From Candidatus Saccharimonadota bacterium (GTDB lineage: Bacteria > Patescibacteriota > Gracilibacteria > UBA4473): DNA of 32,000 nt. Below are positions 2,498 through 32,000 of the stretch, piece after piece. The position numbers and the translations under genes are program-made. Below the pieces are notes generated by a model. It ran no database searches. It was not told the origin of the DNA and saw nothing but the letters and a program-made list of their open reading frames with translations. Position 1 is the first letter of the stretch. Each line of letters opens with the position of its first letter. The stretch covers positions 1,110,001 through 1,142,000 of the forward strand of contig OZ245819.1 of NCBI GenBank assembly GCA_965228485.1, in the 5' to 3' direction.

Positions 2498-2558
2498 AAT
2501 CACTATAAAGTTGGTCTCAGATTGATTTTTTTTTGATATTTAACGACAATAGCTCAGC

Positions 2559-5099
2559 ATGGATTTAAAATTTCTCCTGCAAGCTATAAAACAAAAAACA
2601 AATAGAAAAATAATCTGGTCAGTATTTTTTCTGTTAGGTCTTTTTTTTGCTGATTATACGATTTTGGCTCAAGAGGCTGATCAAGCCCTATTAGAAGAAA
2701 TCTCCGTAGTTGAAGAGGTTCAAAACAATGAAGATTTAGCGCCAATAACTCCGGAAGAGGTTACCGTTGTTCCTACTCAAACGGTTCAGCCATTGCAGAT
2801 TATTGTTAATGATCCAGAACCAGGGTTACCTTTTTCAGGAGAAATATTGTCGAGACGATATTTCGAGGCAGAAAAAGTTGTACTTCAACTTTTTGATGAT
2901 GACGGTTTTATTGTTTGGGAAGGTGAAATTCCTCTGGGAGAAGAGGAGGTGCGGGTTATTCCTTACTATTTTGTAGATGTAGAGGCTAGAGGTGAGTTGC
3001 GTTTGGTTGTTAAGGCAGAAGGTTCGGATGATGAAACATTGGCCATGGGAGAGCGCCCTGTGGAGTTTCCTTACGGAACAGAAACCACAAAGATAACGGA
3101 TGTCAGTTTGGTTTTAGAAGAAGATAACACCTCTATGGTTTTTATAAATTTGGAGGCAGGAGCTTTTCATGAAGCTTTTGTGCCTCATATAAAAATTTAT
3201 AAAGAAAAACGATTGAGCGAGAATCTTTATTATGAATACGATGATTTGCCGGTTAAAGTTTCTCCTCAGGAGCGAAAAAAAATTGGCTTTAAGGTCGATA
3301 AGTTTCTTCCCACGGGATTGTATGTTTTTGATATAGGGCTCAAGGAATTTCGAACAAAAGCTCCAGTGCCAGGGTATTTTCAGAGAACTATTTTTAGCCC
3401 AGGAGACTATATTCGTTTGACTCGAAGTAGTGTTTTTCATTCCGAAAAGACGCCAGAATATATTAATTTGAATTTGCAGGGAGTTGCTTTTTTTGAAGTA
3501 AATCAGCCATTGAAAGCCACGGTTGCTGTCGTGGATAAAAAAGACTTAGTCATAGAAAAAAAGGCAGATATTGAGTTGGAGAATGGTTACTTTAACCATA
3601 CTTTGCAATTTTCTTTAGCCGATATTAGATCAGATTTTACAGGGAAAATAGACCTCCGTTCAGAAAAAGGTGAAGCCTTGGCGAGTAAAGATTTTAACTT
3701 TTCAGATATTGAAGTAGAGGTTTTTGAGAACTTTAAAAACTTACCACCAGTGCAGAAACCAAAGGAGGAAGATACAAATCCCCCTGCTCCAGAAGTAACA
3801 AGCGTTGTAGAATCATCGTCTTCTCAAGACTGGATACAGATATTAAAATCAAATCAACTTTATATTTATGCTGGAGGAGGGATCTTATTGGTTATTATTT
3901 TGTTGATTGTGGTACTTTCTCGTCGTCATAATTTATGGCTGATAACCGCAGGAGCTTCTGTAGCGATGCCTGTTATTTCCTGGGGAATTGCAATTCCTTT
4001 TTATCCGACGGTTGAATGGATACAGCCAAATACTACGGCATTATCAGCTTATAACCCGGATTCAGAGTCTGGTTTTGAAATTATGAGAGTTGAAGGACGA
4101 GTTTATAATGGTTTGACTGGAGAAAGTTTTTTTAAAACGGATATTATTAAGGAATGGCGGATTAATTTTGTTGATTCTCAGGGGAAACTTTTTCAGTTTA
4201 GTCTTGAAGAGGATTTCTTAGCTGATGGACTTAATTTTGAAAAGAGTGTTCGAACCGGGTTTTATCGTTTCTACCTAGATCTAAGCAAAATCGAAGGAGC
4301 TTTTCCTTTAGGGGAAGAATCTCCATTTGTTTTTTCTGAGGGGAATTGGAGGACTCAACTTTTATTTAAATTTTATGATGCAGAAGCCTCTGTGAATACT
4401 TGGTACGCTACGGATTTTAGTGAAGACCTAAGTCGATTTGTTATTGATCGAACAGCTCCTCAGGTTTCGCTTAGAATGCTTGGAAAAGATGGTGAACCGA
4501 TTCCTAATGGAACTTTTACTAACCAGCCTGTAGAAGTGGAAGTTTCTTGTCAGGATACAGGATCTACTTGTCTTTGGGAAAAGAAAAAATTTCCAATTTT
4601 TGGTAATTTTTGTGCTGATGGAACGAAGTGTGATAACACAGCGGCCCGTGAAATTGTTGTTTGTGATTTAGCTCAAAACTGTGAGTCTCATGAGATTAGT
4701 ATCGATTACTATGATCCAATTCCACCAAAACTAGATTTCTTTCAGCTTGGTGGAGAGGGAGTACAAAGGGTGGAATCTGCCTATGAAATGATGCTCCGTT
4801 ATCAGGATCCAAGGAAGACGGTGGAGATTGATGATAATTTATTTTTGCCTCATGTTTGTGCCGCAGAATCGAGTGGATTCTTTTTGGATAAAGCAGAAAA
4901 TCGATGTTATCCAAAACGTTATCCTTGTGTTTTTAAAGATAAAGGTATTTTTGTACGAGGAGAAAATACTGGACATGGTTGTGCTCAGTCTTGTCCGATT
5001 GGGTTTGAGTTCAAGAATGGAAGTTGTCAGGTTCCTTGTAATAATCAGAGTTTTTTATCTGGGGAGATGTGTTTTCCTTTGATTTTTTCAAACAATTAA
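2559..5099 (+). CDS. Large uncharacterised envelope protein 'A1'. It has an N-terminal signal/anchor, an A-type ectodomain, a hydrophobic hairpin and a Cys-rich C-terminal domain.
   Basis: This is an 846-aa ORF. Hydrophobic segments are IIWSVFFLLGLFFADYTILA near the N-terminus, then LYIYAGGGILLVIILLIVVLS-RRHN-LWLITAGASVAMPVISWGIAI mid-protein. The first ~440 aa resemble the 409-aa ORF at 28992-30221. The last ~210 aa contain many Cys. Confidence 0.8.
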   Translation: MDLKFLLQAIKQKTNRKIIWSVFFLLGLFFADYTILAQEADQALLEEISVVEEVQNNEDLAPITPEEVTVVPTQTVQPLQIIVNDPEPGLPFSGEILSRRYFEAEKVVLQLFDDDGFIVWEGEIPLGEEEVRVIPYYFVDVEARGELRLVVKAEGSDDETLAMGERPVEFPYGTETTKITDVSLVLEEDNTSMVFINLEAGAFHEAFVPHIKIYKEKRLSENLYYEYDDLPVKVSPQERKKIGFKVDKFLPTGLYVFDIGLKEFRTKAPVPGYFQRTIFSPGDYIRLTRSSVFHSEKTPEYINLNLQGVAFFEVNQPLKATVAVVDKKDLVIEKKADIELENGYFNHTLQFSLADIRSDFTGKIDLRSEKGEALASKDFNFSDIEVEVFENFKNLPPVQKPKEEDTNPPAPEVTSVVESSSSQDWIQILKSNQLYIYAGGGILLVIILLIVVLSRRHNLWLITAGASVAMPVISWGIAIPFYPTVEWIQPNTTALSAYNPDSESGFEIMRVEGRVYNGLTGESFFKTDIIKEWRINFVDSQGKLFQFSLEEDFLADGLNFEKSVRTGFYRFYLDLSKIEGAFPLGEESPFVFSEGNWRTQLLFKFYDAEASVNTWYATDFSEDLSRFVIDRTAPQVSLRMLGKDGEPIPNGTFTNQPVEVEVSCQDTGSTCLWEKKKFPIFGNFCADGTKCDNTAAREIVVCDLAQNCESHEISIDYYDPIPPKLDFFQLGGEGVQRVESAYEMMLRYQDPRKTVEIDDNLFLPHVCAAESSGFFLDKAENRCYPKRYPCVFKDKGIFVRGENTGHGCAQSCPIGFEFKNGSCQVPCNNQSFLSGEMCFPLIFSNN

Positions 5100-7288
5100 T
5101 GATGTGGCGAATACTTAGCTTACTATTAGTACTAATCAGCAATGGAGCGATGGCTCTATCGGTTCCAAGTTCTGGAATTGACTGGGAAAAATCAAACATT
5201 GCTATCGAGGCTTTTGAGTCACCATTTATTGAAAATCAGGCATTGTTTCGTTGTTTTGGTAAACAGTTGGAAAATCTGCCAATAGAAATTCCTCTAAAAG
5301 ATATTGGTTTTGGCTCTAATAGCCCGGGACCTACGACACTAAAACAGCAGCTAGAGGCTCATGAATGTTTTCAGGCAGCGGGGACTTATCAGTTGAATTT
5401 TACGCTCTTCGATTTGGCTGGGAACCATAATAGCAAGTCTCAAATCCTCGTATTAGAACCAGGGGCAGTAGAGGTAAAAAATACTCGTATTGATGTTGAT
5501 AATGTTCAGCAGTATCGAACAGGTGAAAGTGATTTTATTAGAAAACTTACCAGCGATTGTGCAACGGAAAATCTAGTTGCAAATGGGTTGGATACTTGTA
5601 ATTTGAGAGTAAGTTTTCATGATGAGTTTGGTAATCGTGTGACGAAAGATTACTTGAAATCTATAGAGATGGGATTTCCTGGATTAGATTCTAGGATTAA
5701 AAAAATTAGAATTGTCAGTAAGACTGATAACCCTTTTCATCAGGGAGTTCGTTTTGAGGACGGGAAAGTTACCAAAGTATTTTCAGGAAAAAATGCAAAA
5801 TTGGATCATGCATATGATTTTGGAATTAGAAGCTGGGCTCCCACATTAAATATTGGAAATGGAGGGAGTTTTCCGTTTTTACAGGTTACTTCTGTGAAGC
5901 TTCCACTTCGTTTGCAAATGGATGTGGTTGAAGTAGGGAGTGAAACGATTAAGACCGTTGATACTGAGTTTGAACTTCGATTTCGACCTTGGGTAAACTT
6001 GGTGATTGATCCAGAGTGGTCTTTGGAACGGCATTTTTACGCTTCGCTTCAAAGTTGGTCTCCACTAAGTATTGTTCCAAGATTTACTTCTGGAGTTTTA
6101 CAGCCAGATCGAGTGGCCATTTCTTTTCGGGGGGTGGGAAAAGAAGGGATAGAAGTTTTATTAAAGGATAAAACGACTTCTCCAAGTGAAAGTTATCAAG
6201 TTTCTCTTGATAAGGGCGCAGAAAAGCCTGTCGGTTTACAATTTTTAGTAAAGTCTTTACAGAGTGATTTGAAGGCTATTTTCCAACTATTTGGAAATGT
6301 GGCGTATGTCTTTAGGGATCCTATCTATGGTCCTAAATTGATACAGTATCCAATGACTATTATGACGGGAGAAACGATAGACATGCCTGTACTTGCTGAA
6401 TGGAGAACTTTACAAGTTGGGGCGGATGTTGAAGGAAAAGTCTTAACAGACTCTCGTATCATCAATGATCCTTCAACCATTTTCTTTTCACAGAGTCAGG
6501 CAGATATGCGTGAAGAATTGGTTCGAAATACTTATCGTTTGGTTCGTGGAATTGAGCCAAAGGATACCGAAGCTATTAATATTGATACAGATCTTAATAC
6601 TGGAGTTTACTATGTGGCGAATCGAAACGTAAAATTGACTTCTAATGAAAAAGTTGGAGATATGATTTTTGGTGGCGGAAGACGGACTATTGTTATTGAA
6701 AATGGGAATCTACTGATTGATCGAAATCTCCGTTATGAATCAGATGAAGATTCATTGGGGATTATTTTGATCAGTAAAGAAGCAAATTCTCGCACCACTG
6801 GTAATGTGTTTATAAATAATGAAATTAAGTATTTTGTGGGAACTTATTTTCTTGACGGGAGTCTCATGAGTACCCTTGAAACTGACCCTATGAGACTTTC
6901 GGTTACCGAATCTATTCCAAAAAGATCTGAAACAAATAATGATAACCCGAATGCTCCGCTCGGATATCAGCTGGTATTGGATGGGACTATTATTTCTCGA
7001 AATACTTGGGGAGGCGCTTCTTCTACTCCAATTAGAGATCCATGGGATAAGGAAGTTGATTTCGAGACAGCCGCTCGATATGACCTAGACTTTATTCGTC
7101 GTTATCAGCCAACCAGAGATACAGATAATGAGATTGTTCCGGATGAGTACAATGATTACTGTGTTAAAGTTGAGGATCAGTGTGATGAAAATCCTCATGC
7201 CTTTATTATCCGTCCAGATGGGAGAGTGAAGCATAATACGCCTCCAGGATTCTCTCATGTTTCGAGTTTATCTTTAACGTCAGAATAA
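5099..7288 (+). CDS. Large uncharacterised secreted protein 'B1' (adhesin-like) with a conserved ~290-aa C-terminal 'B' domain
   Basis: The ATG at 5099 overlaps the A1 stop (TAATG) and gives a signal peptide MMWRILSLLLVLISNGAMALS. A middle segment looks like a bacterial Ig-like repeat (NGLDTCNLRVSFHDEFGNRVTKDY). The C-terminal ~293 aa are clearly homologous to the ORF at 30832-32000 (-). Confidence 0.8.
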   Translation: MMWRILSLLLVLISNGAMALSVPSSGIDWEKSNIAIEAFESPFIENQALFRCFGKQLENLPIEIPLKDIGFGSNSPGPTTLKQQLEAHECFQAAGTYQLNFTLFDLAGNHNSKSQILVLEPGAVEVKNTRIDVDNVQQYRTGESDFIRKLTSDCATENLVANGLDTCNLRVSFHDEFGNRVTKDYLKSIEMGFPGLDSRIKKIRIVSKTDNPFHQGVRFEDGKVTKVFSGKNAKLDHAYDFGIRSWAPTLNIGNGGSFPFLQVTSVKLPLRLQMDVVEVGSETIKTVDTEFELRFRPWVNLVIDPEWSLERHFYASLQSWSPLSIVPRFTSGVLQPDRVAISFRGVGKEGIEVLLKDKTTSPSESYQVSLDKGAEKPVGLQFLVKSLQSDLKAIFQLFGNVAYVFRDPIYGPKLIQYPMTIMTGETIDMPVLAEWRTLQVGADVEGKVLTDSRIINDPSTIFFSQSQADMREELVRNTYRLVRGIEPKDTEAINIDTDLNTGVYYVANRNVKLTSNEKVGDMIFGGGRRTIVIENGNLLIDRNLRYESDEDSLGIILISKEANSRTTGNVFINNEIKYFVGTYFLDGSLMSTLETDPMRLSVTESIPKRSETNNDNPNAPLGYQLVLDGTIISRNTWGGASSTPIRDPWDKEVDFETAARYDLDFIRRYQPTRDTDNEIVPDEYNDYCVKVEDQCDENPHAFIIRPDGRVKHNTPPGFSHVSSLSLTSE

Positions 7289-7320: not shown

Positions 7321-8331
7321 GTGCGTATGTGGTGGATTTATGGAGGAATAGGTTTTTTGTCAGGAATAATAGCGACTCTTGCCGCGGTAAAATTTTTTCC
7401 TCAATGGGGACTCTTGGATTTTCCGGAGAGATATGGGCTTAAACGAGATAAAATACCTTATCCAGGGGGGATAAGTTTACTGGTTTTTATTTGGGGATTA
7501 TTACTTATAGATTGGTCTTTTTGGGTTGTCGTACTTCCCGCAACAATTATTGGTTTAGTTTCCTTTATCGATGATCGAAATCCTATTTCTGCCAAATGGC
7601 GTTTGGGATTACAGATTTGGATGGCTATTTTTGTTTGGATTATGGGAGTCAGGATTTATTATGTTACGAATCCGTTTGCCGATACTAATTTTGAAATAAC
7701 CAATATTTACCCACATTTTGCTTTATTTTTAACCGTTGTTTGGATTGTTTCTATTCAGAATGCTTCAAACTGGTTTGATGGTTTAAAAGGCCTTTCTTTA
7801 GGCATTTCTGGTATTGGTTTTTTGACGCTTGGATTACTTGGGGTTTTGCGACCAGAACTCCTCTTTGATGTTCAGCATACAACGCTGACTTTGGCCAATT
7901 TTTATTTGGGAGGCTTGGTGTTTGGGGCTTTTGTTTGGTATTGGAGAGGGAAAATCCTTTTGGGAGATTCTGGTTCACAAGTATTGGGCTTCCTTTTAGC
8001 GGTTATGGCAATTTTTTCAGGAGCTAAAATTGCTACTACTTTACTTGTTTTGAGTTTGCCGATATTAGATTTCTTTTGGGTGATTTTTAGGAGAATTGTT
8101 ATTGATAAAAAATCTCCTCTAAAGGGAGATAAACGACACTTCCATCACCTACTTTCTCAACAGTTTGGAGAGAGGCTAGCAGTATTAGTTTGTTTAATTT
8201 TTTCCTTGTTTTTTGGAGCAATAGCTCTTTTCTTTAGTGGGGAGATTAAACTCTACTGTTTTCTATTTTTAGCAATTATTTTTGTGATTATTAACTTTTG
8301 GCTTTACCAAAAAATACGATTACAAAAATAG
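7321..8331 (+). CDS. Polyprenyl-phosphate N-acetylhexosamine-1-phosphate transferase (glycosyltransferase family 4, WecA/TagO-like rather than MraY)
   Basis: This is a multi-pass membrane protein. It has the motif NASNWFDGLKGLSLG (NxxNxxDGxDGL type) and the WecA-type motif GDKRHFHHLL. A perfect TATAAT at 7315-7320 sits just before the ATG at 7327, so the true start may be a leaderless ATG at 7327 rather than the GTG at 7321. Confidence 0.8.
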   Translation: MRMWWIYGGIGFLSGIIATLAAVKFFPQWGLLDFPERYGLKRDKIPYPGGISLLVFIWGLLLIDWSFWVVVLPATIIGLVSFIDDRNPISAKWRLGLQIWMAIFVWIMGVRIYYVTNPFADTNFEITNIYPHFALFLTVVWIVSIQNASNWFDGLKGLSLGISGIGFLTLGLLGVLRPELLFDVQHTTLTLANFYLGGLVFGAFVWYWRGKILLGDSGSQVLGFLLAVMAIFSGAKIATTLLVLSLPILDFFWVIFRRIVIDKKSPLKGDKRHFHHLLSQQFGERLAVLVCLIFSLFFGAIALFFSGEIKLYCFLFLAIIFVIINFWLYQKIRLQK

Positions 8332-8345
8332 TGACAGATTGGATT
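8332..8345. repeat. Left arm of a perfect 14-bp inverted repeat (TGACAGATTGGATT) bounding the GC-rich nhaA cassette
   Basis: This arm is the exact reverse complement of 10013-10026 (AATCCAATCTGTCA). It starts one base after the wecA-like stop codon (TAG at 8329-8331). Confidence 0.9.
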
Positions 8346-8594
8346 GAACCTCAGCCCATCGACTCACCTCCAGGAGCAGTACCGTGAAAGGAGGATTTTG
8401 TCGATGGGTGAGGCGAACTCTAGTACTGGGGAGTCTAGAGTTCTATCCTAGCACGGGGGCTTGTGCTAGGAATAAGAAACAGGGCTGGACTTTAGAGGCG
8501 CCAGGAGTCCTTTTGCTCAGGCCGCGTACGCCCTGAGCGAGGAAGTCCGCTTCCGTGTCGGGGGATTTTAGGTCCCGACAGGGAGGAAGACTTC
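8346..8594. other. GC-rich, hairpin-dense noncoding segment: candidate structured RNA or 3' UTR of unknown class
   Basis: The segment lies between convergent stop codons. It has stops in all frames and no ORF of track length. One line (8521-8580) counts 39/60 G+C. It forms seven consecutive stem-loops: 8349-8413 (5+9 bp outer plus CCTCC/GGAGG inner), 8415-8443 (9 bp), 8447-8470 (8 bp), 8487-8510 (5 bp), 8515-8538 (7 bp), 8541-8554 (5 bp with UCCG loop) and 8556-8580 (7 bp). Confidence 0.4.
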
Positions 8595-9839
8595 TTATGG
8601 GAGGTTGATCCTTTCTACCCGGCAGATTTTTCCGGCAACCAATGAGATCGGAACTCCAGCGAAACTGAAGACCGCGCCCATTTTTCCGGCTGCCATTACC
8701 AGTGCTTTTCCCTTGAATGCCACGTCTGCGACAAATAAGGCAACGGTAAATCCGATACCGGCGACACATCCTACTACGAATAGGTCGATTGTGCGCATTC
8801 CCTGAGGTAGACCAAAGGCTTTTTCTCCGAGCCACCCCATAAACAAAATACCCAGGGGTTTGCCAACAAGGAGTCCCAGCAAAACGAGCCAGGTAGCTTC
8901 GCCAATCGAAGCAAAGACCACTCCAGCATTTGCCAGTGCAAAGAAGAATAGCACGATTTCCACGACCCCACCGAGACGGTGCTCGAAGGCGTTGAGGGTG
9001 TCATCGAGAGACTTCTCCTCACGGGCGAAGAGACCCAGGTCAGATTCTGCATGAGGCATCGTTGGGATGATAGGAAGCAGTCCTAGCGCTGGATGAATGC
9101 CAGCGAACTGGAACCCCAACCAGCTGATGGAGCCACCAATCAGTAAGTATGGCCAAAAATTCAGCATTTTCAGTCCTCGGTTGAGGATGAAGTAGTTGAA
9201 GATCATAGCCGCTACTGGAAGGAGCATGTAGCCGATTTGGATTTCTCCTTGTGGATAGAAGACTGCCAGGATGATCAATCCAGCTGCATCATCAGCGATG
9301 GCCAACAGCAGTAAGAAGGCCACAGCTGGGTGATCCTTCCCAAATACCCAGCGGCCTACGAGATAGCTGAACGCGATGTCAGTCGCCGTCGGGATAGCCC
9401 AGCCATTCCCAACCTCTTCCAGAACACCCCAGAAGGTGGCCATCACGATGTAAACAGCGATAGGCCCGATCATGCCACCAGCGGTAGCAATGAGTGGGGT
9501 TGCTGCCTTTTTGCCACGGAGGCTTCCGCCTTTAAGCGCAACGGCTTCCCAGACTTCCTTTCCCGCAATCGCGAAAAACAGCGACATCAGGATATCGTTG
9601 ATCAGGAAGTGAACAGTCAGTTCTCGGTGTCCATGGTGGAGATGCCCGACCCAGTCGTTGGTCAGGATAATGTGGTGGGTGAAAGCGTAGTAGCTCTCAT
9701 AATTTTTATTGGCCCACCACATGGCCAAAAGGGCTCCCAGAATCAGGAGTAAGGAGTTTTCGCGGACGAAGGCCCACACTCCTCTCTTTGCTTGAGTTTC
9801 TGCCGACATGACAATTTTCCTGTCTTTGCCTCTCTTCAT
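8595..9839 (-). CDS. nhaA: Na+/H+ antiporter NhaA
   Basis: This is a 414-aa polytopic membrane protein with the NhaA hallmark LLLLAIADDAAGLIILAVFYP, which corresponds to the paired Asp of E. coli NhaA. Its G+C is far higher than its neighbours (33/60 and 35/60 in two counted lines). Confidence 0.92.
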   Translation of the reverse strand: MKRGKDRKIVMSAETQAKRGVWAFVRENSLLLILGALLAMWWANKNYESYYAFTHHIILTNDWVGHLHHGHRELTVHFLINDILMSLFFAIAGKEVWEAVALKGGSLRGKKAATPLIATAGGMIGPIAVYIVMATFWGVLEEVGNGWAIPTATDIAFSYLVGRWVFGKDHPAVAFLLLLAIADDAAGLIILAVFYPQGEIQIGYMLLPVAAMIFNYFILNRGLKMLNFWPYLLIGGSISWLGFQFAGIHPALGLLPIIPTMPHAESDLGLFAREEKSLDDTLNAFEHRLGGVVEIVLFFFALANAGVVFASIGEATWLVLLGLLVGKPLGILFMGWLGEKAFGLPQGMRTIDLFVVGCVAGIGFTVALFVADVAFKGKALVMAAGKMGAVFSFAGVPISLVAGKICRVERINLP

Positions 9840-9930
9840 TAGTCAGTCGAGAGGACTTTTTGGTTAAAAGGATAGGCTCTTGCGGATGCCTACAGTTACT
9901 CCGGTCAATGAAACGACCCTTAACTTTTTA

Positions 9931-9993
9931 CTTAAAAAGAGGTCCGCAAGGCCCTCGTCTAGATTTATAAAATCTAACTCGAGAGCCTCGCGG
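9931..9993 (-). promoter_or_regulatory. Long imperfect hairpin followed by a U-tract in the nhaA 5' leader (attenuator- or terminator-like)
   Basis: The minus strand reads CCGCGAGGCUCUCG-AG-U-UAGAUUU-UAU-AAAUCUA-GA-CGAGGGCCUUGCGG, then ACCUCUUUUUAAG. Two G:U pairs exist only on the minus strand and would be C/A mismatches on the plus strand, which fits the nhaA transcript orientation. The hairpin lies ~95 nt upstream of the nhaA ATG. Confidence 0.4.
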
Positions 9994-10012
9994 GGTATTT
10001 CTTATTTTTTAT

Positions 10013-10026
10013 AATCCAATCTGTCA
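10013..10026. repeat. Right arm of the perfect 14-bp inverted repeat (AATCCAATCTGTCA)
   Basis: This arm is the exact reverse complement of 8332-8345. G+C falls back to the host level just outside it. Confidence 0.9.
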
Positions 10027-10135
10027 AAGAACCGAACTTAACCTTTGTGGTTAAAGTTACGAAAAAAGACGTTTAAAATGCTGGCTTACCGCCAAAAATG
10101 TTTTGGTAGCGCAACACTTATAAAACATCGCACGA

Positions 10136-10164
10136 ACGATATTTTTAGATCATAAAATTGTCAA
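10136..10164 (-). promoter_or_regulatory. Putative sigma70-type promoter reading toward nhaA
   Basis: The minus strand has TTGACA (10164-10159), a 17-nt spacer and TATCGT (10141-10136). A second overlapping TTGACA lies at 10171-10166. This is a sequence match only. Confidence 0.25.
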
Positions 10165-10216
10165 GTGTCAAATAAGGATTTTTTACTGAATATAGTAACT
10201 CATACTTATCAAGATT

Positions 10217-11443
10217 TTAAAGTTGAGAGACGAGTGTTTTAAAATGTCGTCCTTTTGTTTCATAGTTTGGGTATTGATCGAAGCTTTTTCCAGCTGGGGA
10301 AAGGAGACAAACTTTTCCAGAAGGAGTAAGACTGAGTGCTTTTGAAACAGCTTCTTCTAAGTTATTGGTAATAACGAAATCTCTTTTTGGAAAAGTCTCT
10401 TTGATTTTTTTTGCTACAGGTGACTCCGTTAGGATAGTGGTTGTTTCTGGAGAAACCGTGTCTAATGTTTCAAAGAGTATATCAAAACTACCGCCTCCAT
10501 CAGTCCCCCCCAAAATTAACGTTCCGAGCTTTTTATTAAAAAATTTTATAGCCGCGATTACGGCTTCCGGATTTGTAGCAATAGCATCGTTAAAAAATGA
10601 TATCCCTTGTTTTGTATTGACGAACTCTAGACGGTGTTCTGGGAGTTGGAGTGTTTCAAGGCTTTCTAAAAAGTCTTGGTGAGTAAATTTCTTACCAATA
10701 ATTTCTGTTACTGCTGGGATAATCCCTAAATTACTTCGGAAATGTTCGGCCATAAAAATATGGTTTTCGAGGATTGCTTCGGTTGAGAGCGATTGAGTTT
10801 CTTGGATTTTTGCTTTTGTAGGAAAAGTATCGATGGTTGACTTTCCTAGAGGGGTGGTAATGCAATAGTCTTCAGTGTTTTGATGTCCCCAGAGTTGGCT
10901 TTTGGCACGACCATAATTCTGGAGTGTTTTGTGCCGATCTAAGTGATCGGGAAACAATCCAAGAAAGACGGCAATATGAGGAGATTTTTGGAGTATTTCT
11001 AGTTGATAACTAGACATTTCTAAAACGATATAGTCGTATTTTTTGGCCTTGAAGTCATTAAAAATTTCGAGTATTGGGTGTCCAATATTACCAGCGCAAA
11101 CAACGTTTAATCCAATGTGATTTAACCAGTTTGTTAGAGCTAGAGTAGTGGTTGTTTTCCCTTTTGATCCTGTAATTCCAATAACTTTTTTTCGTTCTTC
11201 TTCGGCAAGATTATTTAGAAACCAATTTATTTGATTCGTGACTTTGAACTGATGTTCTTTTGGGAGGGAATGGGGATCAATCCCGGGAGTACAGAAAATC
11301 AAATCATACTTATCCCACTCAGGTTCTGTGGGATGTGTTTTTTGATCAAAAATACTAATTTTGATCTCTGGATAAGCGTTCTGGAAGAATTTTTCGGTAG
11401 ATTTTCCTTCTCTTCCGTAGCCGTAAATAAGAATACTATTCAT
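10217..11443 (-). CDS. murD: Mur ligase of the MurD type (UDP-N-acetylmuramoyl-L-alanine--glutamate ligase)
   Basis: It has a MurD-like N-terminal Rossmann segment (ILIYGYGREGKST), the P-loop VIGITGSKGKTTTT and the C-terminal motif LLSPAGKSFDQYPNYETKGRHF. Confidence 0.85.
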   Translation of the reverse strand: MNSILIYGYGREGKSTEKFFQNAYPEIKISIFDQKTHPTEPEWDKYDLIFCTPGIDPHSLPKEHQFKVTNQINWFLNNLAEEERKKVIGITGSKGKTTTTLALTNWLNHIGLNVVCAGNIGHPILEIFNDFKAKKYDYIVLEMSSYQLEILQKSPHIAVFLGLFPDHLDRHKTLQNYGRAKSQLWGHQNTEDYCITTPLGKSTIDTFPTKAKIQETQSLSTEAILENHIFMAEHFRSNLGIIPAVTEIIGKKFTHQDFLESLETLQLPEHRLEFVNTKQGISFFNDAIATNPEAVIAAIKFFNKKLGTLILGGTDGGGSFDILFETLDTVSPETTTILTESPVAKKIKETFPKRDFVITNNLEEAVSKALSLTPSGKVCLLSPAGKSFDQYPNYETKGRHFKTLVSQL

Positions 11444-26207: not shown

Positions 26208-26741
26208 ATGGACCAACAAAACCCTCAGAATCCACAAGGTCAAATGCCACAGCAACCCGTTTCCGGGGGGGATATGCCTGCACAAACTGGACAACCTGCG
26301 GGAGGGAACTCTCAAGGGCAAGTTCCAGCACAAAGTGCTGCACCTCAAGTACCTATGGATCCTAATGCGAGACCAGGACAGCTATCTCAGAGGACTGGTC
26401 ATATGTTCAGTATTCCGCCACATCCAAATACTCAGTTTGATGAAGCACAGTTCTTAGCTTTATTGGAGGGATCTATTTCCCTAACTATGGAGGAAAAGCA
26501 ACGGGTAATTGATGCTATTCCTCGCTTGTCTATTGAACAAATTAATGAGCTTATTTCTATCTTTGAAGAAGAGAGACAGAAATTCTCAGAACTGGAAAAA
26601 GAATTTGCTGATGATGTAGCAAAATTAAAGGCTGAACGAGAAAAAGAAATTGCTATGACCGAATCTAAACAAGAAGAAGAAAGTGAAGCTGAAGCAGATG
26701 CGGCAGCGGCTGAAGCTCTGAAAAAACAAATGGGGCTTTAG
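26208..26741 (+). CDS. Hypothetical protein with a Gln/Pro/Gly-rich N-terminus and an acidic coiled-coil C-terminus
   Basis: This 177-aa ORF sits where rpmA (L27) often follows rplU, but it shows no L27 motifs. The central segment is LTMEEKQRVIDAIPRLSIEQINELISIFEEERQKF. Confidence 0.6.
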   Translation: MDQQNPQNPQGQMPQQPVSGGDMPAQTGQPAGGNSQGQVPAQSAAPQVPMDPNARPGQLSQRTGHMFSIPPHPNTQFDEAQFLALLEGSISLTMEEKQRVIDAIPRLSIEQINELISIFEEERQKFSELEKEFADDVAKLKAEREKEIAMTESKQEEESEAEADAAAAEALKKQMGL

Positions 26742-26760
26742 TTTCTAATAAAAATTTATT

Positions 26761-26791
26761 AAAAAAAGAAGCTAAGAGGCTTCTTTTTTTT
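26761..26791 (+). terminator. Rho-independent terminator (bidirectional in form) after the 26208-26741 gene
   Basis: The stem is AGAAGC-TAAGAG-GCTTCT. It is preceded by an A-run and followed by a T-run, and lies 20 nt after the stop codon. Confidence 0.6.
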
Positions 26792-26808
26792 GTCTTAAAT
26801 TTTTTAAA

Positions 26809-26841
26809 TAAAAAAAGACCACCTTATGGTGATCTTTTTTT
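26809..26841 (-). terminator. Rho-independent terminator after rplL (bidirectional in form)
   Basis: The stem is AGACCACC-TTAT-GGTGATCT with one C/A mismatch. It is flanked by A- and T-runs and lies 20 nt downstream of the rplL stop on the minus strand. Confidence 0.55.
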
Positions 26842-26860
26842 GAAAAGCATTATTTCAAGA

Positions 26861-28600: not shown

Positions 28601-28992
28601 CCGTTTAACAGTGTGATAGTTAGCTGTAGGTAGGTGGCAAAAGTTACCCAGAGTAAATAGGGAATTTGTGCATATGTAACCCATTTTCTATAAGGCCAGA
28701 TAGCCTTCATTGCCCAGATCAAAGTGCCCCACACAATAAGAATGTCAGAGAAAGCTAACCAATTGTTCTGAATTCCAAACTGTATTGGCATAAATGCAAA
28801 ATTACTTACAAGGTTTAGAATGAAAGGAAGTGCTACTTTTTGAGGAATTTCTTTATTCCAGACAAGCCAAAAGACATAGCTGAAACTTATAAAAATAATG
28901 GTATATAAGAGACTCCAAACAGGCCCAAAAACATAGGCTGGAGGAGCCCAATCAGGTTTGATATATTCACTATAGGTTTGATAGTCTTCCAT
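28597..28992 (-). CDS. tspO: TspO/MBR-family (tryptophan-rich sensory protein) membrane protein
   Basis: The N-terminal motif is KPDWAPPAYVFGPVWSLLYTII. The protein is Trp-rich and multi-TM, at 131 aa. Its start overlaps the upstream stop by 1 nt (TAATG). Confidence 0.75.
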   Translation of the reverse strand: MEDYQTYSEYIKPDWAPPAYVFGPVWSLLYTIIFISFSYVFWLVWNKEIPQKVALPFILNLVSNFAFMPIQFGIQNNWLAFSDILIVWGTLIWAMKAIWPYRKWVTYAQIPYLLWVTFATYLQLTITLLNG

Positions 28993-30221
28993 TAGAATCG
29001 TTTGTTTTTCTTAAATAAAAGGTAGGCCAAAATAAAGAAAATACTGATGAAGAATAGCTGAACAATGTCTATTAGTGGAAGTTTTGGATGGATTTGAAAT
29101 TTATGACTGTTGAGCAGTTTGTTGATTAGGCTCTTTATATAATCAATTTTTTGTTTCTTATCGTAGAATGGGTTTTTTACATTAAAGTTTTTTGTACTGA
29201 TAATTTCATTTTTATCCATGAATTCTAATCGAATCTCATAACTTTTTTGATTTACTGGTAGAGAGAGGGTCTCGTCTACCTGCCATTGATTTTGTTCTAA
29301 TGTGATTTCTTGACCACTTAGATAAAGATCTTTTAAACGAAAGACCATAGCAGGATTATTTAAGTTTGTACTTCCTCCTGCATGAATATTTAGTTTTATT
29401 TCTTTTTCAAATAAGATTTTTGTATTGAGATATCGAAAGTTCACAAAATCCCCAGGAATAAAGAAGTCCCAGTGTTTAATCCCTGATCGCGCATTGCTCA
29501 ATCCATCGATTATTTGTGCGGCAAGAATATAGTTTCCGGCGGTGCCTGGTTTTTCAAACTCAAAGCTTTTTACTGAACGGCCAACATCAATGTTTTTGAG
29601 GTTAATAAAGTGTTCATGTATGAGATTTTCTGGAGCTAAATAATCTTGGAATAGGGAGATTTTTAGGGTTGATTCGGGGATAGCTTCTTGAGCTGTAATT
29701 TTTAGGTCTAAGTTGAGAGAATTTTCGTCAATTACAAAGGCTGAATTGTTTTCTAGAGTCACAGATAAGAGATTGTATTCACTGTCTATTTCAACCGTTG
29801 ATTCGGTGGAAGCCAGAAGTTTTCGAGTATTATCCATCACCTCTGCTTTTAATTTTAGCCTTCCTGAAAGGTGTTTGAATGACTCTCGAGAGAAATTGAA
29901 ATGTTGAATATTTTTACTGGGGTTCTTCCAGCTAAGAACTGACTGCCAAACAATATTTTCAGATTGGTTTGAAAGGGTAAAATAAATCTTTTTATCGGTA
30001 ATAATTTCACTAGGTAAAACGACTTCTCCGTTAAGCCCTTTTTTCCCCTCGAAGGAGTTTGGATTGATTTTTATTTGGGCCAGGTTAACGGCAGAAGTTT
30101 TTATAAGTTGAACATTTACGGCCGGCTCAAAATTTGCCTTCACTGTTCCTGCGTAAAAAAAGAGAAGTAGAGAGGAGGCTAAGCAAATATTTTTGAGCTG
30201 TTTGTAGAGGGAACAATTCAT
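28992..30221 (-). CDS. Uncharacterised secreted, C-terminally anchored protein 'A2' (paralog of the N-terminal half of A1)
   Basis: It has a signal peptide (ICLASSLLLFFYAGTVKA) and a C-terminal anchor (IVQLFFISIFFILAYLLFKKNKRF). Several motifs are shared with A1: IVW, SGRLKLKAEVMDNTRKLLA vs RGELRLVVKAEGSDDETLA, PENLIHEH vs SENLYYEY, and FIPGDFVNF vs FSPGDYIRL. Confidence 0.7.
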   Translation of the reverse strand: MNCSLYKQLKNICLASSLLLFFYAGTVKANFEPAVNVQLIKTSAVNLAQIKINPNSFEGKKGLNGEVVLPSEIITDKKIYFTLSNQSENIVWQSVLSWKNPSKNIQHFNFSRESFKHLSGRLKLKAEVMDNTRKLLASTESTVEIDSEYNLLSVTLENNSAFVIDENSLNLDLKITAQEAIPESTLKISLFQDYLAPENLIHEHFINLKNIDVGRSVKSFEFEKPGTAGNYILAAQIIDGLSNARSGIKHWDFFIPGDFVNFRYLNTKILFEKEIKLNIHAGGSTNLNNPAMVFRLKDLYLSGQEITLEQNQWQVDETLSLPVNQKSYEIRLEFMDKNEIISTKNFNVKNPFYDKKQKIDYIKSLINKLLNSHKFQIHPKLPLIDIVQLFFISIFFILAYLLFKKNKRF

Positions 30222-30268
30222 TTTTTATAATTGTATCTGTTTATTTGGTTTTTCCGAAATAAAAAGTT

Positions 30269-30831: not shown

Positions 30832-32000
30832 TTATTGGAGAGAAGTTTTTGTCGTAATATTAAATACAGGTAGAGGAATTTGATCGTTTAGATTGTTAGT
30901 CCTAATGACTAGGGCATGTTGATTTGCGTCGCAAATACTGCTTATTTTGGCACAATGATTGTTGCTATTGTCTGGTATAGGGTGACCTCCTGAGTAAGGT
31001 GTTCCATAGCGTCTTAGATAATTAAGATCATATTTTTGTGCTTCGGTTAGAGTAACATCTTCTTGCCAAGGGTTTTGAGGTGGAGTATCAGCGGCTCCTC
31101 CAATTGTATTTTTTGTGAAGAGCATACCATTGAAAATTAATTGTTTTCCTAGAGGGGCGCTCGGATTATCGAGATTGGACTGATTTCTATTAGTAATAAC
31201 TTCATTAACATTCAATAGTGTCGGATCTGTTTCTAGGGTACTGAGAAGACTTCCATCTGCATATACTGTGGCGTTCATGTGTTGGACTTCTCCATGTATA
31301 AATAGATTTCCAGTTCTTCGATCAGTAGTATTTGAATTGATCAATATAATTCCAAAGTGGTGGTTGGTGTTATTATCTGGGTATAAGATATCTCTATCTA
31401 TTAATAAGTTTCCGTTTTCAATAATCAGTGTTTTAGCGCCTTCATCAAACCTTATAGCATCGGGGAAACTTCCTGTTCCAGTTAAGCGAACGTTCGTGTT
31501 TTTGAAATATACGAGGTCTTCATTGGTGAAGCCTGTGTCTATATTGAATTCTGTACTGGTTCGTGCGGCTTTGCCTCGAATAAGTTTGTACACATTTCTC
31601 ATAATATCTTCCCGCAGGTCTGATCCAGATAGATTTGTCAGTACGGAAAGATTATTACTTTGTTGTTTGATATTAAATGGTCCATAAGCCTTTCCTTCAA
31701 TGTCAGCCCCAATAGCTACCATTGATATTTGGGTGAAAGGGTCTCCGTAGATATTGGTTAAGCTCTGTCCAACAAAGGCTGGGTCAGTACCAATATAAGT
31801 TCCAAGATTTCCTGCAGGATGACTAATGTTATAGAGCGTAGAGTTGTGGTTTATATTTAAATTTATAGTAGAACTAATACTTACTTTTTCTGATGGGTTA
31901 TAACTGTGTTGATTGCTGGTGGTTACAAAATTTTCAGTGTGATTATCACTGGTGACTCCATTTGAGTTTATATCAAATCCTTGTGGAAGGTTATCAATGT
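30832..32000 (-). CDS. Uncharacterised secreted protein 'B2' (paralog of B1); 5' end runs off the window
   Basis: I translated the minus-strand frame by hand from 31723 to 32000 and found no stop, so the track Met at 31722 is internal. The region 30832-31722 aligns with the C-terminal ~293 aa of B1. Confidence 0.8.
   Translation of the reverse strand, partial: IDNLPQGFDINSNGVTSDNHTENFVTTSNQHSYNPSEKVSISSTINLNINHNSTLYNISHPAGNLGTYIGTDPAFVGQSLTNIYGDPFTQISMVAIGADIEGKAYGPFNIKQQSNNLSVLTNLSGSDLREDIMRNVYKLIRGKAARTSTEFNIDTGFTNEDLVYFKNTNVRLTGTGSFPDAIRFDEGAKTLIIENGNLLIDRDILYPDNNTNHHFGIILINSNTTDRRTGNLFIHGEVQHMNATVYADGSLLSTLETDPTLLNVNEVITNRNQSNLDNPSAPLGKQLIFNGMLFTKNTIGGAADTPPQNPWQEDVTLTEAQKYDLNYLRRYGTPYSGGHPIPDNSNNHCAKISSICDANQHALVIRTNNLNDQIPLPVFNITTKTSLQ

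Follow-up and report, generated by a model that had tools for sequence, protein, structure and literature searches.

The attC sites of integron cassettes are single imperfect hairpins of 57-141 nt, and hairpins that stabilise the 3' ends of mRNAs are known from enterobacterial repetitive extragenic palindromic (REP) sequences and bacterial interspersed mosaic elements (BIME) as well as from the intercistronic hairpins of the Rhodobacter puf operon. Mobile insertion cassettes (MICs) are transposase-less elements that are flanked by inverted repeats and carry passenger genes (PMC5444012). In Aeromonas, plasmid pAC3 carries such an element, the qnrS2 cassette, with a structured non-coding piece similar to a miniature inverted-repeat transposable element (PMC5444012). 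Here we describe a conserved non-coding module of ~263 nt in a 32,000-nt stretch of a genome from the Gracilibacteria lineage (contig OZ245819.1, positions 1,110,001 to 1,142,000; "the window" in this text, from whose first letter all positions are counted). The module (8332-8594) occupies the entire gap between the convergent stop codons of a host gene for a cell-wall glycosyltransferase and a GC-rich, foreign nhaA gene, and its body is formed by a run of hairpins. As far as its two available sequences tell, it is a real, conserved and unclassified structured element in a candidate phylum.

The locus shares some features with each of the known systems. Like a MIC, it combines a single passenger and a structured non-coding segment between what may be short terminal inverted repeats, contains no transposase and has a foreign composition. 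Unlike MICs, it showed neither a target-site duplication nor further copies, and we found no autonomous insertion sequence related to it; the repeat is just 14 nt long, which is a chance-level length, and 250 nt of dissimilar hairpins are conserved beside different cargo at one chromosomal site. With integron cassettes it has in common a variable open reading frame (ORF) that is immediately followed by a conserved, structure-dependent non-coding element common to different cargo, but in contrast to attC the module lacks the RYYYAAC and GTTRRRY sequences, consists of seven hairpins over ~250 nt, and has neither an integrase nor an array. It fails a defining test of both MICs and integron attC sites. 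As a stable GC-rich hairpin stack without U tracts that lies directly past a stop codon, it would be able to block 3' exonucleases in the manner of the REP and puf stabilisers; REP elements, however, are high-copy, similar palindromes, whereas the hairpins of the module are all different and single-copy in the window and the related loci. Finally, it resembles bidirectional intrinsic terminators in its position between convergent stop codons and in having equal structure on both strands, but it has no flanking A/U tracts, while the host's own bidirectional terminators are single short hairpins with such tracts.

The hairpin run had been pointed out in an earlier note on this DNA, which listed seven perfect hairpins between 8346 and 8594. 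In a base-by-base count all seven were found in place, with 60 Watson-Crick pairs spread over nine stem segments, no G.U pair and no mismatch. The hairpins and the segments that join them are as follows (pairs of coordinates give the two arms of a stem):

8349-8353/8409-8413: outer stem of H1, 5 bp; G8354 is bulged
8355-8363/8400-8408: middle stem of H1, 9 bp, followed by an internal loop
8367-8371/8390-8394: inner stem of H1, CCTCC/GGAGG
8415-8423/8435-8443: H2, a 9-bp hairpin (element 8415-8443)
8447-8454/8463-8470: H3, an 8-bp hairpin (element 8447-8470)
8471-8514: A-rich linker, then the H4 region
8487-8491/8506-8510: H4 as listed in the earlier note, a GGACT/AGTCC stem
8515-8521/8532-8538: H5, 7 bp, with a GC/GC pair further inside
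8541-8545/8550-8554: H6
8556-8562/8574-8580: H7
8540-8596: terminal compound hairpin, either H6 plus H7 or one ~19-bp arm pair (8542-8562/8574-8594); its base abuts the cargo stop codon

The statement that these hairpins are not repeats of one another proved accurate, as the seven share no sequence. An alternative pairing of 8540-8547 with 8589-8596 had also been proposed; its eight pairs do exist, but one of them is a G.U pair and only seven are Watson-Crick. RNA folding of 8340-8600 gave -123.4 kcal/mol on the plus strand (z = -6.0) and -111.9 kcal/mol on the minus strand (z = -7.8), and none of 200 shuffled sequences folded as well as the native one. With DNA energy parameters, the minus strand reached z = -7.35. 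When structure was regressed on GC content in 120-nt windows across the 32 kb, the run was the top plus-strand outlier. The hairpin structure is therefore far beyond chance. The body (8346-8594) has a GC content of 56.6%, with 48% of its bases within perfect stems, and belongs to a segment (8346-9840) of 50-57% GC in a window of ~38% GC. It had been called the most GC-rich stretch of the window, which is true only at a fine scale; at a scale of 250 nt, windows within nhaA reach 52-56% GC.

We could identify one homolog of the module. A 2.7-kb ENA contig (L039) of an uncultured relative bears P0122, the nearest sampled relative of the host glycosyltransferase protein (glycosyl-transferase family 4, GT4; 70% identity), and directly after the TAG stop codon of this gene follows a sequence that aligns end to end with 8332-8594 of the window. 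The hairpin body is homologous to 1858-2088 of L039. Both copies start with TAG/TGACAG (stop codon/module) and have the same 3' end, ...GGGAGGAAGACTTC (...GGAAGACTTC), and the similarity drops sharply at both edges. The earlier note thus had the body of the element right, but the conserved unit begins sooner, at 8332, one base past the GT4 stop codon, and ends at 8594, at the nhaA stop codon on the opposite strand. The two modules, the only sequences on which the comparison rests, have a column identity of 87% along their whole length, which rises to 94% in the 3' 115 nt. The adjoining GT4 genes are 68% identical at the DNA level; their four-fold degenerate sites are only 34% identical and therefore saturated.

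In L039 the module adjoins a cargo gene other than nhaA. It is a different GC-rich membrane-protein gene on the opposite strand, whose product has a weak match to DUF1646 and none in NCBIfam. It is the same base of the terminal hairpin to which the cargo is joined in the two cases, and in both genomes the cargo has a GC content of 52-56% compared with 36-41% in the hosts. In L039 the cargo gene has a predicted TGA stop codon (2087-2089) that is created across the module junction (GTT/GAAGTC); if the L039 host does not read TGA as stop, the cargo protein would extend 57 codons into the module, to a TAA.

The pairing in the hairpins is conserved between the two copies. When the minimum-free-energy structure, taken from the window sequence alone without the use of L039, was tested on L039, four pairs had changed on both sides and all four were kept, while no pair had changed on both sides and been broken. 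RNAalifold reported six compensatory pairs, on either strand, and a count of pairs likewise gave six compensatory pairs for the structure and none in every control with slid partners. At ~16.5% divergence ~0.65 kept double changes are expected by chance under neutrality, so that four or more have a probability of ~0.004 and six or more of ~6e-5. The outer stem of H1 is remodelled in L039 with one compensatory pair, while its inner stem and the GAAAGGAGGATTTTGTCGAT stretch are invariant. A symmetrical deletion has trimmed H2 to a shorter hairpin, GAGCC GAAG GGCTC, with a compensatory change of A-U to G-C at its base; H3 is shortened too, with compensatory changes of C-G to U-A and of A-U to G-C. 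These symmetrical losses amount to 15 nt in H2 and 8 nt in H3, and both are still perfect hairpins. H5 carries one compensatory A-U to G-C change. Conservation is highest in the terminal hairpin, where H6, H7 and their linkers differ in loop bases only. The H4 stem of the earlier note is not conserved: GGACT/AGTCC is present in the window but broken in L039, and what the two copies conserve in this region is a CTGG/CCAG stem (8485-8488/8501-8504) around an invariant GGCGCC.

The earlier note had made its proposal depend on homologs with compensatory changes; the one homolog, L039, has them. Compensatory substitutions that conserve the structure, the feature by which a structured non-coding RNA is recognised, are thus seen in a comparison of two sequences only. 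They indicate that the hairpins are maintained by selection on base pairing, for which two sequences provide real but thin evidence. The pairing says that the hairpins are maintained and is silent on the choice between a role in RNA and one in DNA. Some G.U pairs are normally present in RNAs transcribed from one strand only. A structure that has to form on both strands, or in DNA, would be expected to have purely Watson-Crick stems. The core stems fold equally well on both strands and under both energy models (RNA and DNA). The folding of the alignment gave -90.2 kcal/mol for the plus strand versus -86.7 kcal/mol for the minus strand, and several G.U pairs are gained by peripheral helices on the plus strand, which is not decisive for the strand. 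The designation as a structured RNA candidate holds for the structure, which is strong, but is not established for the RNA, given the absence of G.U pairs from the core stems, the equal folding on both strands and as DNA, and a promoter scan that found no promoter-like site in or beside the module.

In relatives that are more distant, the locus is organised differently. The window is syntenic over ~20 kb with a chromosome labelled Candidatus Altimarinota (L004; Gracilibacteria, Patescibacteria group), which has neither nhaA nor the hairpins. In this chromosome and in L045 and L047, a convergent class I aldolase gene abuts the GT4 gene or overlaps with it, and genes for a MurD-like ligase and MurL come next, with no spacer and no module between GT4 and the aldolase gene. 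L044 has an AT-rich spacer with one simple terminator and no module. Altogether, the module was absent from the GT4 loci of L004, L005-L007 and L044-L047. Since the relatives have the aldolase gene and no module, the module and the foreign gene have taken the place of the aldolase gene in the lineage to which the window and L039 belong. The class I fructose-bisphosphate aldolase gene lies at 5974-6867 in L045, 4042-4935 in L047 and 10978-11871 in L004, to be compared with 8332-10216 in the window; no remnant of it was found at the locus and no copy elsewhere in the 32-kb window. The MurD-like block of L004 is inverted relative to the window.

Among 5.8 billion sequences, the closest NhaA proteins are only 69% identical. 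They come from other small-genome contigs that resemble the candidate phyla radiation (L001-L003), where simple terminators follow nhaA; homologs with 62% identity (L009, L010) have an epimerase gene directly after nhaA, and the proteins of Rhodobacteraceae come next at ~60%. These relationships suggest an alphaproteobacterial nhaA that is spreading among Patescibacteria. Because the NhaA homologs are distant and free of the module, nhaA is taken as imported and the hairpin run as no conserved appendage of it. The idea that the module belongs to nhaA has to be abandoned, since the homologs with 62-69% identity lack it and the L039 copy stands beside other cargo. A 3' element of nhaA was likewise ruled out as an identity for the module, as the gene ends in simple terminators in L001-L003 and runs into the epimerase gene in L009 and L010. 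In L001, L002 and L003, nhaA is again more GC-rich than its surroundings.

On the window side, the module may form part of a larger unit. Its first 14 nt recur in perfect inverted orientation (14 of 14 positions) beyond nhaA, and these are the only two copies of the 14-mer in the window. The putative cassette and its flanks are composed as follows:

7321-8331, plus strand: host flank, wecA/mraY-type glycosyltransferase gene (GT4), stop codon TAG
8332-8345, plus strand: left arm of the 14-nt inverted repeat, TGACAGATTGGATT, identical to the first 14 nt of the conserved module
8595-9839, minus strand: nhaA, Na+/H+ antiporter gene, the GC-rich foreign cargo, stop codon TAA at 8595-8597
9840-10012, minus strand: region upstream of nhaA, with a terminator-like hairpin at ~9942-10000
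10013-10026, minus strand: right arm of the inverted repeat, reading AATCCAATCTGTCA on the plus strand
10217-11443, minus strand: host flank, MurD-like ligase gene

The two stop codons that enclose the module, TAG at 8329-8331 and TAA on the minus strand at 8595-8597, are those named in the earlier note. The repeat, which ends in TG...CA, brackets the module, nhaA and the 173 nt upstream of nhaA. As in a MIC, there is a passenger without a transposase between the repeats, and nhaA is the sole gene between the arms. This arrangement hints at a transposase-less cassette. What supports the repeat is the coincidence of its left arm with the start of the module, its length being at chance level. 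It lends some support to a recombination site, an option already raised in the earlier note, and is statistically insecure when taken alone. The L039 copy keeps 12 of the 14 bases of the left arm at the same position, so that the left end of its element is a variant of its own, TGACAGGTTAGATT. The right end of the L039 element lies beyond the contig, and the closest MurD-like homologs are only 45% identical. The right-hand GC boundary of the putative cassette in the window is not sharp.

The region upstream of nhaA contains structure of its own. On the minus strand, 9873-10000 includes a strong 14-bp GC-rich hairpin with two G.U pairs, an inner AU hairpin and then U5, and the 3' arm of the hairpin (9942-9958) can alternatively pair with 9873-9889. 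The hairpin and U5 (~9942-10000), which are located just inside the right repeat arm, look like a terminator, judging by their sequence. No clear sigma-70 promoter was seen for nhaA.

The earlier note could not assign the run to a known RNA by eye, and our database searches did not provide an assignment either. The 32-kb window had no match in Rfam 15 at gathering thresholds, a comparison that included tRNA, tmRNA, SRP, RNase P, 6S, ribozymes, riboswitches, group I/II introns and HEARO, and both module copies gave only weak matches at E <= 10. The best of these was PK-BYV (RF01100, the 3' pseudoknot of beet yellows virus) with 19.6 bits for the window and 28.2 bits for L039, at a threshold of 50. 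This identity (8445-8487 in the window and 1946-1981 in L039, corresponding to H3 and the A-rich linker) was rejected, because both matches fall short of the threshold and the two copies do not conserve the loop-tail pairing that it implies; it is probably due to chance. ARAGORN found no tRNA or tmRNA. The motif GAGGAAGUCCG resembles the CR-I motif of RNase P, but this identity was also dismissed, as the motif forms the local hairpin H6 and the available space is too small for an RNase P RNA. In the H1 inner-stem region (8365-8371 with 8386-8395), UCACCUCC pairs with GAAAGGAGGA, and both are unchanged in L039; the former has the same sequence as the anti-Shine-Dalgarno tail of 16S rRNA, and the latter is a perfect extended Shine-Dalgarno sequence.

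A protein-coding function could be discarded as well, in agreement with the earlier judgement that the stretch has no coding potential. There is no conserved reading frame in the module, even if TGA is read as glycine or as another sense codon. The longest frame (63 codons) was compared with 1.84 billion proteins by profile-free HMMER searches and yielded no real protein matches, only chance matches to repeat proteins that share FCRWV; a small or decayed protein gene was therefore rejected. In H1, a Shine-Dalgarno-like GAAAGGAGG is followed by an ATG (8404-8406), which is not a conserved start codon because it is ATC in L039. A GTG-started ORF in the module encodes 50 aa in the window versus 17 aa in L039.

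None of the hairpins H1 to H7 precedes five or more U residues (H4 has UUUU only), which bears out the view that they are not simple terminators, and a terminator scan of the module flagged just an artefactual 6-bp stem inside H7. With no combination of hairpin and U tract, an intrinsic (Rho-independent) terminator was ruled out. Terminators of the host are found at 26741-26850, where two classical bidirectional terminators lie between an uncharacterised gene and the genes for ribosomal proteins L7/L12 and L10; this region is a strong structure outlier on both strands. They are short hairpins flanked by A and T tracts, and the module lacks such tracts.

Among the DNA elements, an integron attC site was rejected because RYYYAAC and GTTRRRY are absent from both strands of 8300-8660, the large ORFs of the window contain no integrase or recombinase domain and the module is not repeated. 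Membership in a REP/BIME family did not hold either, since the hairpins are dissimilar and no other copy occurs in the window or in 194 kb of related loci. For a bridge or seek RNA of the IS110/IS1111 type, there is no gene for a DEDD recombinase in the window, and the one 9-nt match to the ends is within chance, although short split guides may be present. BLASTN against plasmids and phages returned no match to the module. Pattern scans of IMG/VR with the H1 arms, with H2-H3 and with four conserved cores returned nothing or unrelated coding DNA, while the 14-mer repeat had more than 120 chance matches there, with inward-facing pairs not beyond expectation. In JGI metagenomes, the left repeat arm plus 7 nt had no match and a 21-nt core had four, all in unrelated coding DNA. 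No additional copy and no related autonomous element with the same ends was thus found in the window, the 194 kb of related loci, the JGI metagenomes and IMG/VR.

The reading that we favour, although tentatively and as one still short of probable, is that the module forms the constant 3' end of a small cassette, inserted between the GT4 and MurD-like genes, whose foreign gene can be exchanged, and that it folds on both strands. The cassette may here comprise 8332-10026, bounded by the 14-nt inverted repeats in the manner of a transposase-less mobile insertion cassette. In its favour are the Watson-Crick stems that fold on either strand, the pairing kept in L039, the conserved module beside different GC-rich cargo, the absence of the module from more distant relatives, the left repeat arm exactly at the module start and the terminator-like hairpin just inside the right arm. 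An action of the module on transcripts and the mobility of the cassette are what we infer. The role of the module would most likely be that of a 3'-end cap and insulator for two convergent transcripts. With purely Watson-Crick stems, transcripts from either gene would fold into the same stable hairpin stack. This stack could block the 3'-to-5' decay of both mRNAs, and the position of the module directly past both stop codons fits such a predicted role as an mRNA 3' stabiliser. It could also prevent antisense transcription of each gene by read-through from its neighbour. When cargo is replaced, the invariant terminal hairpin or 3' core would serve as a junction, as a stretch of homology or as a recognition site.

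Several observations weigh against this reading. The relatives L045, L047 and L004 tolerate overlapping convergent genes without any insulator, and classical termination is unlikely since the module hairpins have no proper U tract. The near-invariance of an 80-nt core of the module suggests sequence-specific recognition rather than generic hairpins. The known module copies are two, both at the same locus, so that mobility is not demonstrated, and a covariance model of the 3' core detected no further copy over the 194 kb of related loci. We found no target-site duplication, as the left flank (...AAAAATAG) and the right flank (AAGAACCG...) share no direct repeat, and no transposase, recombinase or integrase domain in the large ORFs of the 32-kb window. 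Moreover, perfect 14-nt inverted repeats within 5 kb are expected by chance ~1.4 times per window of such composition. Two more perfect inverted repeats of 14-15 nt are present (19505-19519/24283-24297 and 2144-2157/2585-2598), with arms 0.4-4.8 kb apart, and are consistent with this expectation.

A rival reading places the role of the module in DNA. It could be the end of a recombining or transposing element, with extruded or single-stranded hairpins or with palindromes bound by a protein, while a recombinase or transposase encoded elsewhere would recognise these along with the 14-nt repeats and move or swap the cargo gene, and effects on transcripts would be incidental. Stems that consist of Watson-Crick pairs alone and fold no less well under DNA parameters, a TG...CA inverted repeat whose left arm lies exactly at the module start, the joining of different cargo at the same base of the terminal hairpin in two genomes, the nearly invariant 3' core and the composition foreign to the host all agree with this explanation. 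We nevertheless regard it as unlikely, because there is no enzyme gene nearby, no target-site duplication, no attC core site and no other copy in our searches, the repeats are at chance frequency, and transposon ends normally need 20-40 bp, not 260 bp. A bolder version would make the module, as folded DNA or RNA, the ~260-nt multi-hairpin anchor of a new gene-cassette exchange system of Gracilibacteria. In that case, a recombinase would swap single foreign genes for membrane proteins of the cation-transporter type in and out at the module, a function analogous to that of integron attC/attI sites but with an unrelated structure. We consider such a system decidedly unlikely. A guide RNA comparable to the bridge or seek RNAs of IS110/IS1111 or to an omega RNA, retained in a derivative element whose recombinase gene has been replaced by the cargo and served in trans by an autonomous copy, would also explain a ~250-nt multi-hairpin non-coding region beside the end of an element with short inverted repeats, and the use of the same insertion site in two genomes. 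It is, however, extremely improbable: no recombinase is encoded in the window, no complementarity of at least 7 nt between the module and the flanks or ends exceeds chance, Rfam gives no match, and the stems are symmetric between the strands.

It is also conceivable that the module has no connection with the exchange of cargo. As an independent structured non-coding RNA gene of the Gracilibacteria lineage, acting from one strand in trans or as a cis-regulator, it would be situated beside an insertion-prone site much as tRNA and tmRNA genes are at genomic islands. Its sequence and structure are conserved well above neutral expectation and with compensatory pairs, a high GC content within an AT-rich genome is common among structured RNAs, and the peripheral G.U pairs and the slightly better alignment fold of the plus strand (-90.2 versus -86.7 kcal/mol) point in the same direction. 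Yet the module has no promoter-like site and no terminator of its own, 0 of its 60 core pairs are G.U pairs, which is unusual for an RNA from one strand, it is missing from the same locus in L004, L044, L045 and L047, it has no Rfam match, and a housekeeping RNA would have no use for its first 14 nt in a second, inverted copy on the far side of the cargo; we therefore think an RNA gene quite unlikely. A further explanation would be functionless intergenic palindromes of the donor, REP/BIME-like or perfected by template switching, which were carried along with the foreign gene and are similar because the transfer was recent. A foreign GC content equal to that of the cargo, perfect stems typical of young palindromes and the existence of just two known copies are in line with this. 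What makes it very unlikely is that, in spite of ~16% divergence, four to six pairs changed on both sides and none of those was broken, and that two symmetrical deletions left perfect hairpins. Besides, the module was kept while the cargo differs, these streamlined genomes retain a spacer of 263 nt at a place where the genes of their relatives overlap, and the hairpins are unrelated, with no repeat family in the window.

Beyond this locus, the window has an unusual pattern of stop codons. Its ~25 genes end in TAA (16) or TAG (9), and the sole TGA terminates an ORF that is likely a spurious antisense frame. In-frame TGA codons never occur inside credible genes; every in-frame TGA lies upstream of the likely start codon. 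Going by codon use, TGA looks avoided or unassigned rather than used for glycine (code 25) or as a stop. Four ORFs of 388-848 aa have no Pfam domain (2553-5099, 5069-7288, 28992-30224 and 30832-31998), of which those at 2553-5099 and 5069-7288 are conserved in L004 and other Gracilibacteria loci.

In candidate-phyla bacteria with tiny genomes, adaptation is believed to proceed mostly through gains of single genes, but the insertion, expression and insulation of these genes are poorly understood. Here, two lineages keep a GC-rich, 263-nt module at a place where their relatives have overlapping genes. The covariance model (R1) and the two-sequence alignment offer a handle for scanning complete genomes for it. 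If the module is an RNA, it would represent a new structured family; if it is the end-piece of a cassette or an exchange site, as in the cassette reading that we favour, it would be a new and easily searchable marker of gene acquisition in Patescibacteria.

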